The notes under the pieces were generated by a model, which did no database searches, was not told the origin of the DNA, and saw only the letters and a program-made list of their open reading frames with translations. From Candidatus Rhabdochlamydia sp. (GTDB taxonomy: Bacteria; Chlamydiota; Chlamydiia; Chlamydiales; Rhabdochlamydiaceae), in NCBI GenBank assembly GCA_051648645.1, contig JBOFFP010000012.1:96001-160000 (forward strand): a stretch of 64,000 nucleotides of DNA, given 5' to 3'. How positions within the stretch are numbered: position 1 is the stretch's first letter; each line of letters opens with the position of its first letter. Below, one piece after another: positions 23,461 to 26,400 of this stretch. Made by a program: the position numbers and the translations under genes.

Positions 23461-26400
23461 ATGAGCTTTTCCCCTCTCAAACAGGAAAACGAGCAGCTAT
23501 CCTCATATAAAGATAGTTCTCCATGGACTTCTTTTTTCATTACTGAGGAGCAAGCTCAAACTTTACTGAAAACGGCAATACCTATCACTCTTCCCTATAC
23601 AGATTTACAAGGGCACACCATTCAGTTATGGAAATATATCAATCTTTTTGTCGCCTCGATTAAACAAAATGGTCTCATTGCTATTTTCTCCGGCAACAAA
23701 ATTCATAATGCGCTTCTACCTGAAGAATCGAGTGCACTGCTACTAAAGCGTCTTGAGCGTAATCCATTAAAAAAATGGCACTTTAGCTATCTAAAAGAAA
23801 CAGGAAGGCTTTTTATTTGGCCTTTTCTGATTGGTGGTGGAATCGATAAACTCGAGCTTGCTTATAACGCTGCCCTTAATCTTGAGTATAAAAAAGACAA
23901 GACCCCTACCGAGGAACACTTATTTAGAATAGTAGACGGAAATTTAAGAAAAGAATGCGAGCTAATTGGAGCTAAAAGAGAAGCAAGAAAGGAACCTCTA
24001 ATGCGGGATGGAAAGCCCTTATTAAAAGACAATGGACAACCATTCAATCACATAGAGGAAACAAATAACTCACAACATGGCATTAAAAATATAATAAAAT
24101 ATGATCTCAAACCGCAACTAAAGAGAGGTCCTCCTCTTTCTCCTGCAGAAAGAAAACAAGTGCAAAAAGAGATTTCTATATGCAGCCTAGTATTGGAGTA
24201 CAGCGAACGTTTTCACCCTTCCAAACCCATGAAGCAGGTGTTAGAAGAAGCTGCTAAAAGAAATGCTAAAAACGCCCAGAAAAAATCCTTGAAGGGAACA
24301 TCTAAAAACTCCCCTCAAAATCCTCCCAAAAATCCACCCAATCCTCCTAAAAGCAACCCTCCCAAAAACCCTCCTCCTAAAAACAATCCTCCACCAAACC
24401 CCCAGAAAGAATCCTTCAAAGACCGCGTACAAGCTAACAGATTGGTTGGTAGTTATAATTCATGTCATCCGGATCATCCTATGGAAGAAGGAGGATCATC
24501 AGGAGGACATATTGGAGGAGTAGGGAACGAAATTGGTATTATTTTAGGTTTGTTTGATGATGTGAGTGGAATGATAGACAGAGAACATACTTTTTTCCTG
24601 CCTGTGCTTGATAAGCTGTCCTTAAATCAAGAAGAAGTGCAAAGAATGTTACACGAACTTGCTATGGGCATTTTTGTGCATGACACGGTGCCTTTTTTCA
24701 GCTTGCACTTTAATGGGGATACAAACATGTATCCTGTGATTCATCCAGTCTATCAAAATACCTTTGTTGGACATGTAATTTCCATGCTGGACTATCATAT
24801 GAAGGGCTTTCTTAACGGAGGATTTTTTCCTGCTGCTTTTGTGCAAGAATGGAATCAAAACCCTCATATGAGTGAAGAAGCTCTTCAAGAACAGATCATC
24901 GATGTGAGAGAATATTGTCAGAAGCATTTAGGTCCTAATTACCGATACCTCTCCGTTAGAGAACTAACCGAAGCCTTCGAGCGTAAGGAAGCTCTTGAGC
25001 CTGTAGTAAGGTCAGTTGAAGAACACCCTATTCTTAAAGATTACTCTGGATTTAGATCTTCTTTTAGAATCATTGCTCATCAAAACTCGATTAAAAAAAT
25101 GGAAGATCTCTTTGTTTTAGATGGAGGTTTTGATGTTCGTTATACCATTACTCCCGATCCAGATTATGAACGAGAACTTTCCAGATATCGACAATTGACA
25201 GGAGAAGATCCTCCTTCTTATCGTCGTTTAGAAAAAGCTTACGATGCTATGAGTGAGCAAATCAAACGCATCATGCCTCAGGTTCCGGAATTTAAAAAGT
25301 TCTTTGAGGCTCTAAACCTCATCAATTTCTTTTGCTATTATTTTAATACACTCAAACAAGCTAATAAGTTCCCAATCCTATCTCATAGGGTTTTTGAAGA
25401 TACAGATGGTTGTCCTCCTCTTTTTCCCCATTTGCCTTTAAGGGCTTTTTACCATCAAAAAATTGAATTGAAGTTTGCAGATCTTTTTGTATTTAAAGAT
25501 TCTTTTGAAAAGCTACCTGAAGAAAGAGATCTTGATAAGCTCCTAAGAGAGTTGGATGATCCTTTTGCACCTGCCGAACAAAATACTACTGAGCTAGAGT
25601 TGGTTAAAGAAAAAAATAAACTTATTGAACAAGCAATCCTAACCGATAATGGAAAGGAAGAGGCTATCCAATACATGGCTGAGGAACTGCAAAAATACGT
25701 TTTTCAAAAAGCAAAATATCCTCTTGCCAAAAAGCAAAAAGAAATCGATTTTTATAAAGAGATTGCTTCTCCTTTCTTAGAAATGTTTAAAAAAATTTAT
25801 GTGAAAACAAAAGAAGAACAGCTTCCTAAGATCGATGCTTCGATTGAAGAATGGGAAGGCAAACATAGTTATTTCTCTAGCTGGGAAGCTACTTGGAATG
25901 CTTTCGACCAAGATAGCAGAGAATACGGAACGCTACGACATCATCGTAATAGAGAAAACAATGTTCTCATATCTGAAAGCAATCTAAAAATGCTTAGAGA
26001 ACAGCGCTCAGAACTTCTCGAACATCCCTTATCTGTGTTTAGTCCAGAAGCTAAAATTGATCTTCCCATCGAAAGCATGGACAGTACCCTACATCTTTAT
26101 GGGGAGCATAAACTAGAAGAAGAAAAACAGCTACAAAAACGCATCGTAGGAGGATGTGGCATTGAATTAGGCCATAAACCCATGATTGTTGATCCTGTAG
26201 CCTATCCTCTTCTAGATCGACATTTTGGACAGTTATCCAATTTATTCAATGAAGAGATTCTAGAAGTAGCTCATGAAGGGACTAACGGTGTTTTATTTAA
26301 GCTTTGTTTTGCAGATTTTCCTTTAATTGAAGAAGAAGAAAAACAAGCGGCTTTGGGTTATTTATCTCCTCCTAAAATCCCGATGAGCAATGCCATGGTT

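Follow-up and report, generated by a model that had tools for sequence, protein, structure and literature searches.

In the present study, we analysed a 64,000-nucleotide stretch of DNA from Candidatus Rhabdochlamydia sp. (GenBank assembly GCA_051648645.1, contig JBOFFP010000012.1, positions 96,001 to 160,000 of the forward strand), called the window below, and in it a giant gene whose 5' part had been predicted to encode an Ntox28-like nuclease. The flagged nucleotides, 23800-24219, are codons 114-253 of a single intact open reading frame (ORF). The encoded protein consists of an N-terminal domain (N-domain), a toxin cassette, a Pro-rich linker, a central domain and an ankyrin array, in that order; two related genes for HEAT-like proteins lie upstream and a gene for a SecA-like ATPase lies downstream (Table 1). 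No signal peptide or hydrophobic segment was found in the giant protein, and residues 1-130 gave no Pfam or NCBIfam match to a known trafficking domain (TPS, PAAR, LXG, WXG). When the whole giant protein was used as the query, the region search returned just two close orthologues, which carry the source name 'ankyrin repeat protein' and on both of which the precomputed Pfam annotation already lists PF15605; a protein search restricted to lengths of 460-2000 residues gave no homologues.

Table 1. Features of the giant-gene locus in window coordinates (aa, amino acids)
Feature	Coordinates	Strand	Remarks
Remnant of a third immunity-candidate copy	21452..21589 (contig 117452-117589)	+	last ~48 codons; 50% identity to aa 182-229 of the 229-aa copy
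Seven-codon stub of the giant gene's start (MSFSPL-stop)	21629..21649	+	follows the remnant; read from the sequence
Immunity-candidate copy A, HEAT-like	21720..22421	+	233 aa; 84% identical to copy B; weak HEAT/TPR matches (Pfam)
53-codon stub of the giant gene's 5' end	22458..22619	+	aa 1-42 at 93%; 80% over aa 1-54 with TAG
Immunity-candidate copy B	22735..23424	+	229 aa; ends 36 bases before the giant gene
Junction repeat D2 (immunity-gene 3' end, spacer, giant-gene start)	21511-21655; 22340-22484; 23343-23487		74-75% identity
Giant gene	23461..30693	+	2410 aa
Family-specific beta-rich N-domain, aa 25-124	23533..23832	+	after ~20-24 disordered residues
WPFLIGGG, aa 120-127, closing the N-domain	23818..23841	+	window variant of the family motif WPxLxAAG
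Predicted Ntox28-type nuclease domain, aa ~146-258	23896..24234	+	Pfam core aa 167-253; E167, E174, K189, F195, H197, E200
Pro/Asn/Lys-rich low-complexity linker, aa 263-317	24247..24411	+	holds a short tandem-repeat expansion that is not in the orthologue
Conserved central domain(s), aa 318-~985	24412..26415	+	no family match
Ankyrin-repeat array, aa ~1000-2410	26458..30690	+	Ank_2 E 4.5e-146, 14 stretches, plus other Ank families (Pfam)
SecA-like motor ATPase paralogue	30697..33465	+	922 aa; begins 3 bases past the giant gene's stop codon

Profile searches and structure models confirmed the flagged stretch as a predicted nuclease domain of the Ntox28 type, homologous to CdiA-CT of EC536, which cleaves tRNA in the anticodon loop. 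Residues 167-253 aligned to positions 32-112 of the 113 positions of the Pfam profile PF15605 (Ntox28), with E 8e-5 and 23.2 bits for a 340-residue query, which is 1.8 bits under the Pfam gathering score of 25, and with E 5.1e-4 and 20.6 bits for the whole protein. A same-genus orthologue, 67% identical over residues 1-260, reached 40.9 bits (E 2.4e-10) against the same profile, and a relative with 40% identity, which belongs to a different family within the order, reached 74.9 bits (E 6.9e-21). Eight short members with an Ntox28-type cassette were also compared with Pfam; five gave 37-67 bits, two gave 20-21 bits and one had no match. As a single sequence, the domain matched one PDB chain only, the CdiA-CT EC536 tRNase 5j5v_B, at E 0.42 over residues 182-211, and when the family profile was used, 5j5v_B was matched at E 0.011 and its catalytic motifs lined up with those of the family.

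An AlphaFold2 model of residues 1-262, built on a 28-row alignment, had a mean predicted local distance difference test (pLDDT) value of 81, and the helical domain reached 88-93 over residues 170-250. Foldseek with this model returned 5j43_B (CdiA-CT EC536) at probability 0.99, with a template modelling (TM) score of 0.66 on the target over 114 columns; the E value was only 0.098 because the query has two domains. VIA-align ranked 5j43_F first of 48,161 chains (root-mean-square deviation 3.2, 93 of 101 residues, model residues 146-258) with Z 8.8, just about 1 above the generic helical bundles that follow it at Z up to 7.9 and in a range that is ambiguous for helical models, and therefore the fold match alone is weak evidence. 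The Ntox28-like assignment made in the original prediction is thus supported by Pfam through the orthologues, by Foldseek and by the top VIA rank, and the elements on which it was built are all present in the translation (W120-P121-F122-L123-I124-G125-G126-G127, E167-LIGAKRE(174), K189-DNGQPFN-H197-IE-E200 and N203-SQHGIKN(210)). The predicted placement near the N-terminus, right behind WPFLIGGG, was also found: the motif ends the N-domain and the nuclease domain comes next in the giant protein. In other proteins, the Ntox28 module was found at the end of an RHS-type toxin fragment (P0124, 100.5 bits) and on its own (P0091 and P0108); it is therefore the same module that classical polymorphic toxins carry C-terminally.

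It had been proposed that H197 and E200 are catalytic, with E replacing the first D of the Ntox28 core, and by homology this holds. In the family profile alignment, D155, K161-D162, K170, W176, H178 and E181 of EC536 pair with E167, R173-E174, K189, F195, H197 and E200 of the window protein, respectively, once the residue numbers of chain 5j5v_B, which are higher by one than the published ones, have been corrected (H179 of the chain corresponds to H178 in the publication). The cryo-EM study of CysK:CdiA-CT:tRNA (PMC11724271) reports H178A as the inactive mutant and proposes H178 as the general acid; it also describes coordination of Mg2+ by D155 and reduced cleavage and toxicity of the D155A, W176A and K170A mutants. 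Of the 38 Ntox28-type cassettes of the family, 35 have H197. An acidic residue stands at position 174 in all of them (36 E, 2 D) and at position 200 in 31, D or N occupies position 196 in 31, and at position 167 there are 17 cassettes with D or E and 16 with H. The Ntox28 signature is given as 'D, K[DE], [DN]HxxE, E' in the relevant entry of Zhang et al. 2012 (PMC3482391). The window domain reads E, RE and NHIEE at these places, so that N196-H197-I-E-E200 is exact and two positions are conservatively replaced.

These residues also bear on the idea that the Ntox28-like stretch is a relic without activity, which an ankyrin protein retains as a structural spacer. The window copy is the weakest Pfam scorer of its group (23.2 against 40.9-74.9 bits), it has E for D at 167, and its loop before H197 differs by 8 residues from that of the orthologue. 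Against this, the aligned functional positions are all retained or conservatively replaced, the longer loop form is the one found in EC536 itself, and two intact copies of the cognate upstream gene are kept alongside. We therefore consider a relic extremely improbable.

The EC536 toxin was said in the original prediction to bind CysK by a free C-terminal GYGI tail, which an internal domain would lack. This part was borne out, as no GYGI occurs anywhere in the giant protein and the linker and about 2,100 residues follow the nuclease. In the producer genome (93% complete), no cysK was found over the TIGR01139 cut-off, and the best score was 62.7 bits against a cut-off of 350.95. CysK independence of the nuclease is plausible. 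If a cell that lacks CysK needs an immunity protein, the nuclease presumably acts without CysK.

The N-domain was modelled with pLDDT above 90 (about residues 25-124), in the order of strands 53-59, 62-69, 72-77 and 81-83, helix 91-100, and strands 106-111 and 116-121. It had no match in Pfam, NCBIfam or ESM Atlas, in which the best score of 0.78 (RepA) was at noise level, and a PDB sequence search with the N-terminal part of one relative (L004, single sequence) also gave no match. The list of VIA matches for the model of residues 1-262 was filled by the helical domain, so that the N-domain was barely probed. The motif at its end was found as WPxxx..G in 86 of 127 family sequences, ending in AAG (67), ASG (5), AEG (4), GGG (4), GAG (3) or otherwise (3); the four GGG motifs belong to the window, its closest kin and one other sequence. 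K or R comes next in 66 of 85 sequences, and the family consensus is WPxLxAAG[KR]. Within the Ntox28-type members, P121 is present in 38 of 38 and G127 in 37 of 38.

Hence, we could not sustain the reading of LIGG/G as a ubiquitin-like or double-glycine processing site. According to that explanation, the N-domain is ubiquitin-like or carries a double-glycine site, and the nuclease is released or marked when the chain is cleaved behind GG(G), either by a deubiquitinase of the host or by a peptidase of the bacteriocin type. The linker at residues 125-128 is predicted to be flexible (pLDDT under 50) and the final G is near-invariant and usually followed by K or R, and since a conserved, exposed motif exists, some protease could recognise the WPxLxAAG site. 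However, the double glycine itself is not conserved, AAG being far more frequent than GGG, and the modelled order of four strands, a helix and two strands within about 100 residues is unlike that of ubiquitin. No ubiquitin-like chain was among the Foldseek rows for the model of residues 1-262, in which the N-domain was not searched alone. Moreover, a cut at this place would leave the nuclease joined to the 2,100-residue body and not free. Such processing is very unlikely in our opinion. The check on homologues that had been proposed came out as predicted, with different domains behind the motif.

The domains behind the motif were compared in a library search, in which residues 1-262 were used as the query against 1.84 billion representatives. 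This search gave 126 proteins at E <=1e-3, 49 at <=1e-10 and 6 at <=1e-30; at least 126 clusters (50% identity) of Chlamydiota proteins share the N-domain family. Of the 127 sequences (the 126 and the window), 122 have the N-domain, in every case close to the N-terminus, and it also recurs in 11 of 41 related genomes. A second conserved region, corresponding to window residues 318-600, is present in 69 of the 127, and all 62 proteins longer than 450 residues have both regions. Between the N-domain and the central domain lies a cassette of about 100-220 residues, of which at least six unrelated types were found. The 94 cassettes compared (BLASTP, 1e-4) fell into groups of 38 (Ntox28, a type that is over-represented because the library query contained the Ntox28 domain), 21, 12, 6, 5 and 3, plus 9 singletons. 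Pfam gave nothing significant on the other cassette types, the best match being PBECR3 at E 0.17 for one cassette of the type named c1. Near relatives with different cassettes are 30-50% identical in the N-domain, 10-25% in the cassette and 60-90% from the start of the central domain; in one pair (P0100 and P0101), identity rises from 23% to 90% at residue 286.

For the genomic neighbourhoods, 43 loci from named public genomes were fetched with the central-domain alignment as the query. Their titles are those of Chlamydiota (Rhabdochlamydiaceae, Parachlamydiaceae, Simkaniaceae and Protochlamydia), with a few others. Some loci (L034, L041-L043, L047 and L061) come from assemblies titled Verrucomicrobiae, proteobacterium, Coxiella or Pseudomonadota, which may be mislabelled bins or a real spread beyond Chlamydiota. 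We also observed a shorter class of about 1,100-1,120 residues (L050, L051, L053, L057 and several same-genus ORFs), in which an N-domain, a c1 cassette and a central domain are present but the long C-terminal part of the giants is missing; 2-3 tandem genes of the family U0 described below lie upstream.

In 35 giants with both domains (34 loci and the window), same-strand upstream ORFs of at least 100 residues were clustered. Among the loci with flank, the Ntox28 cassette is accompanied by the upstream family of the window (U1) in 7 of 8, the c1 cassette by U0 in 9 of 10, the c2 cassette by U2 in 5 of 6 and the c5 cassette by U3 in 4 of 4, although kinship among these loci, several of which share an assembly, means that the counts overstate independence. 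No cross-pair was found in the 35 giants, each upstream family standing beside its own cassette type only. Homologues of copy B lie directly upstream of the Ntox28-bearing giants in two related genomes (G002 and G040), and the window's upstream gene as a query found no homologue in two others (G006 and G027), whose giants carry other cassettes. Across the 41 related genomes, the profile of the Ntox28 cassette matched 3, and the profile of the upstream family matched the same 3 at full length; a fourth genome has a 41-residue remnant of the upstream family, and a 38-codon stub of the 5' end of the giant gene lies about 200 bases away. This is the pattern of toxin-immunity pairs, and we infer that the upstream protein is a candidate cognate immunity protein.

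The family profile of this candidate gave nothing significant in the PDB (best E 0.89, a PP2A HEAT protein), and the candidate had no match in NCBIfam. The U2 members are leucine-rich repeat (LRR) proteins of the LRR_6 type (E 2e-24), for example L031 98-1045 and L042 7468-9027, and also those of L032, L035 and L043. The ribonuclease inhibitor has an LRR_6-type repeat. By analogy, the repeat type of the U2 partner hints that the c2 cassette may also be a ribonuclease (RNase). Both immunity-candidate ORFs of the window open with an A-rich tract that encodes a poly-Lys leader (MKKKKKKDK..., 21720-21790 and 22735-22800), and this leader is not in the homologues outside the genus. Judging by the family alignment, their real start is probably a Met about 23 codons downstream (codon 24 in copy A).

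The window keeps the order of an immunity remnant with the seven-codon stub, then a full immunity gene with the 53-codon stub, and then the functional pair. We read the three copies of the D2 junction repeat as fossils of exchange events, which mirror the orphan 3' modules of classical systems. The extent of the exchanged unit was followed with quick LG+G4 trees. The central-domain tree (first 330 residues, 62 rows, nine cassette types) requires 27 changes of cassette type, against 29-31 in the first five of 200 label shuffles and a possible minimum of 8; the N-domain tree requires 18, against a shuffle mean of 30.75 and a shuffle minimum of 25. The nearest neighbour has the same cassette type for 24 of 62 by the central domain and for 42 of 62 by the N-domain. 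With the immunity gene on one side of the N-domain and the cassette on the other, these values would agree with a joint exchange of all three as one 5' unit, whose right-hand junction is the start of the central domain. In the syntenic genome G002, the flanking genes are 72-83% identical to those of the window, the giant 67% and the immunity gene 70%. The copy in G006 lies elsewhere in its genome and shares the pair of giant and SecA-like genes, not the flanks.

The gene behind the giant encodes a protein with Pfam matches to SecA_DEAD, PP_bind and P-loop_SecA, and the motifs GEGKS, DEVD and TNTAGRGTDI were read in it by eye. The SecA models matched over positions 22-562 of 789 only, at 286.5 bits against a cut-off of 862. 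As there is no full-length match over the curated cut-off, we classify it as a SecA-like motor paralogue and neither as SecA nor as SecA2; the housekeeping SecA is on another contig. A SecA-like gene adjoins 20 of the 22 giants of at least 2,000 residues, and in the 27 loci with at least 3 kb downstream it lies downstream in 15 and upstream in 5; L023 has a SecA-like fragment at the contig end and L061 has none. From this linkage we infer a role of the SecA-like protein as a partner of the giant.

Around this gene, several further observations were made. In G002, the SecA-like gene is broken by stops (1 TGA and 3 TAA; G002:C1:53391-54368, L063 5587-6363), the giant (2312 residues) and one immunity gene are intact, and one glycerophosphotransferase-like gene stands where the window has two. 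Directly 3' of the SecA-like gene, the window has two tandem CDP-glycerol glycerophosphotransferase-like genes (33545-35622, +). The shorter class is without a SecA-like neighbour in the three loci with enough flank (L051, L053 and L057). A conserved ORF of about 250 residues, with a Gly-rich hydrophobic centre in most members, adjoins the giant and SecA-like genes in 12 loci and lies between them in L028 (16415-17125), L031 (7894-8670), L037 (15349-16110), L040 (15964-16710) and L034 (17597-18385). It had no Pfam match, and tblastn gave no counterpart in the window.

The central domain gave no match in Pfam, NCBIfam or a PDB sequence search, in which just ankyrin designs were returned at its end. 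Its AlphaFold2 model had pLDDT 80.7 and a predicted TM score of 0.72, and Foldseek with this model gave probabilities of <=0.14 among the matches listed. The VIA wide search found only a helical hairpin (model residues 469-537, Z <=7.5), and the conserved alpha/beta part was barely probed; ESM Atlas returned ankyrin clusters only, because the query ran into the first repeats. In the linker before the central domain, TRF arrays at 24317-24401 with periods of 12, 15 and 30 encode an NPPK-like Pro-rich sequence, and this linker is much shorter in the orthologue than in the window giant.

An arrangement of a variable N-terminal effector, a conserved centre and C-terminal repeats resembles that of STAND (signal transduction ATPases with numerous domains) and NLR (nucleotide-binding leucine-rich repeat) proteins, in which effectors are also exchanged. 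We therefore considered an intracellular defence of the NLR or Avs kind, with a swappable effector, a central switch, an ankyrin sensor and a SecA-like helper, whose nuclease would fire in the producer on infection and whose upstream protein would be a safety inhibitor. The lack of a detected export signal would agree with it. However, residues 1-1000 contain no Walker A motif, the only match being ARLKSGKT at 1208 inside an ankyrin repeat, and Foldseek gave no P-loop NTPase for the central domain among the matches listed. To our knowledge, NLR-type effectors come without covarying inhibitor genes. In addition, the same Ntox28 module ends an RHS toxin. Taken together, we give a defence role in the producer almost no weight.

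Overall, we think it likely that the flagged domain is the warhead, an Ntox28 RNase, of a polymorphic toxin-immunity system of Chlamydiota that is arranged in mirror image and has a SecA-like partner. As a metal-dependent RNase, the nuclease would have E167 in the place of the Mg-binding D155 and H197 in that of the general acid H178, and K189, F195 and E200 would take the places of K170, W176 and E181. The variable toxin would sit near the N-terminus, between the N-domain and a constant body made of the central domain and about 1,400 ankyrin residues. The HEAT-like upstream protein would block the nuclease inside the producer, and immunity gene, N-domain and cassette would be swapped as a unit by recombination. 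The SecA-like ATPase would be a dedicated partner, most likely for the handling or export of the signal-less giant. The homology, the fold, the conservation of residues, the diversity of cassettes, their covariation with the upstream genes and the linkage to the SecA-like gene were observed; RNase activity, neutralisation by the upstream protein, export and CysK independence are what these observations would lead us to expect.

Several points weigh against this proposal, besides the Pfam score below the gathering threshold, the narrow VIA margin and the sampling biases given with their numbers above. The E for D at 167 and the R for K at 173 are substitutions at signature positions, and as position 167 is His in 16 of the 38 cassettes, its role may differ from that of D155 in EC536. 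Three loci, L038 (Ntox28), L033 (c1) and L036 (c2), are without the expected upstream family. The upstream families match no known immunity family in Pfam (Imm48 at E 0.067 was not significant, and LRR was found for U2 only). The quick LG+G4 trees span deep divergences, and no cassette replacement at the same locus was found within the genus; the cassette of the syntenic G002 is of the same type as that of the window. Ankyrin arrays are a common mark of effectors aimed at the host, and here the array together with the intracellular lifestyle points to the host. According to Zhang et al. 2012 (PMC3482391), intracellular bacteria are mostly without immunity genes and their toxins are considered to face the host.

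On this last point stands the explanation that the giant is a host-directed secreted effector (for example of type III), the upstream gene being a chaperone or a self-protection gene, and that cassette diversity reflects adaptation to different hosts with no inter-bacterial role. It agrees with our proposal except in the target and in what the diversity means. In its favour, the organism is a chlamydia with an obligate intracellular life, the giant has about 1,400 ankyrin residues, and its N-terminus of about 20-24 residues is disordered and has no signal peptide. Type III secretion is encoded by Rhabdochlamydia (PMC6490308), and Zhang et al. 2012 (PMC3482391) argue that intracellular bacteria direct their toxins at the host. 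Nevertheless, the upstream families covary one-to-one with the cassette type and not with the constant parts. The upstream proteins are made of HEAT-like or LRR_6-type repeats and have 190-520 residues, and thus are not small and chaperone-like. Tandem arrays of 2-3 paralogues (window, L026 and L057) and an orphan copy (G040) are typical of inter-bacterial immunity genes. We regard a purely host-directed role as unlikely. The tandem immunity paralogues and the orphan copy point to bacterial conflict, and we lean slightly towards co-resident or competing chlamydiae, rather than the eukaryotic host, as the target of the toxin-immunity system.

Elsewhere in the window, type II secretion genes (a GspF-like protein, a GspE-like ATPase and a secretin) lie at 8789-13924 (-), about 10 kb upstream of the toxin locus. 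An 862-residue protein made mostly of MORN_2 repeats (E 1e-59) is encoded at 261-2849 (-). Two large ORFs of 843 and 821 residues without a Pfam match occupy 38452-43916 (+), in the stretch of the window that has the lowest content of guanine plus cytosine (about 0.30).

The features that define polymorphic toxins are a warhead at the C-terminus and an immunity gene that follows. The chlamydial family keeps the logic of polymorphic toxins with the polarity reversed, in bacteria thought to be nearly free of toxin-immunity conflict, and toxin scans of C-termini alone miss whole systems of this kind. It offers a predicted Ntox28 RNase unable to use the CysK trick, at least five further cassette types, four candidate immunity families of which one is of the LRR_6 type, a central domain of about 660 residues without a Pfam, NCBIfam, PDB-sequence or Foldseek match, and a diverged SecA motor. 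A wider claim can be raised only tentatively, and we hold it with somewhat less than even confidence: that Chlamydiota carry a widespread, unrecognised mirror-image polymorphic toxin system, in which a swappable 5' unit with RNases and other types sits on a constant giant, with a central domain that is possibly a new fold and a dedicated SecA-like motor. If this is true, toxin-immunity conflicts would be fought among obligate intracellular bacteria within host cells, and the delivery of a signal-less 250-kDa toxin would be linked to an ATPase derived from SecA. Full-text literature searches, with supplements and subscription-only journals outside their scope, gave no description of the family, of an N-proximal Ntox28 domain or of the SecA-like linkage.

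Among the known systems, the closest to the nuclease is CdiA-CT of EC536 (5J43 and 5J5V; PF15605), with which it shares the helical fold and motifs in register (D/E...[KR][DE]...K..G..[aromatic][DN]HxxE). By homology it would also share metal-assisted RNA cleavage with His as the general acid, as set out for EC536 in PMC11724271. Unlike CdiA-CT EC536, the window domain is internal and N-proximal, has no GYGI tail and belongs to a producer without cysK over the cut-off; its immunity candidate is HEAT-like, is encoded upstream and had no PDB profile match. Chlamydiota are absent from the Ntox28 row of Zhang et al. 2012 (PMC3482391).

With the classical polymorphic toxins (Rhs, CdiA, LXG and others), as they are described by Zhang et al. 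2012 (PMC3482391), the chlamydial family has in common a constant scaffold, unrelated and interchangeable toxins and adjacent covarying immunity genes. Orphan or duplicated immunity genes and gene stubs are shared as well, and the Ntox28 module is common to the family and an RHS toxin. In contrast to the classical systems, the chlamydial toxin is N-proximal, the candidate immunity gene is upstream and the stubs are 5' and not 3' ends. Furthermore, the family is without a detected trafficking or pre-toxin domain, it is accompanied by a SecA-like gene, and its hosts are obligate intracellular bacteria.

The APD1 and APD2 proteins of Amoebophilus, an amoeba symbiont, are similar in that many of these effectors share an N-terminal domain that is conserved within their lineage and specific to it, which variable domains follow, and contain ankyrin or other repeats, as recorded in the passage of Zhang et al. 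2012 on these proteins (PMC3482391). The same passage describes them with a signal peptide and lipobox, with variation of the whole C-termini, and without immunity genes (PMC3482391). The chlamydial giants differ in that they vary in a bounded cassette only, with about 2,100 residues constant, and no signal peptide was found in the giant of the window. Finally, the arrangement recalls the accessory SecA2 systems, in which a second, diverged SecA motor stands beside a very large substrate-like gene and the housekeeping SecA is encoded elsewhere. Unlike SecA2, the window protein scores <=252.6 bits against SecA2 cut-offs of 725-1100 and is unmatched in the C-terminal scaffold/wing part, and neither SecY2 nor Asp genes were noticed in the window.

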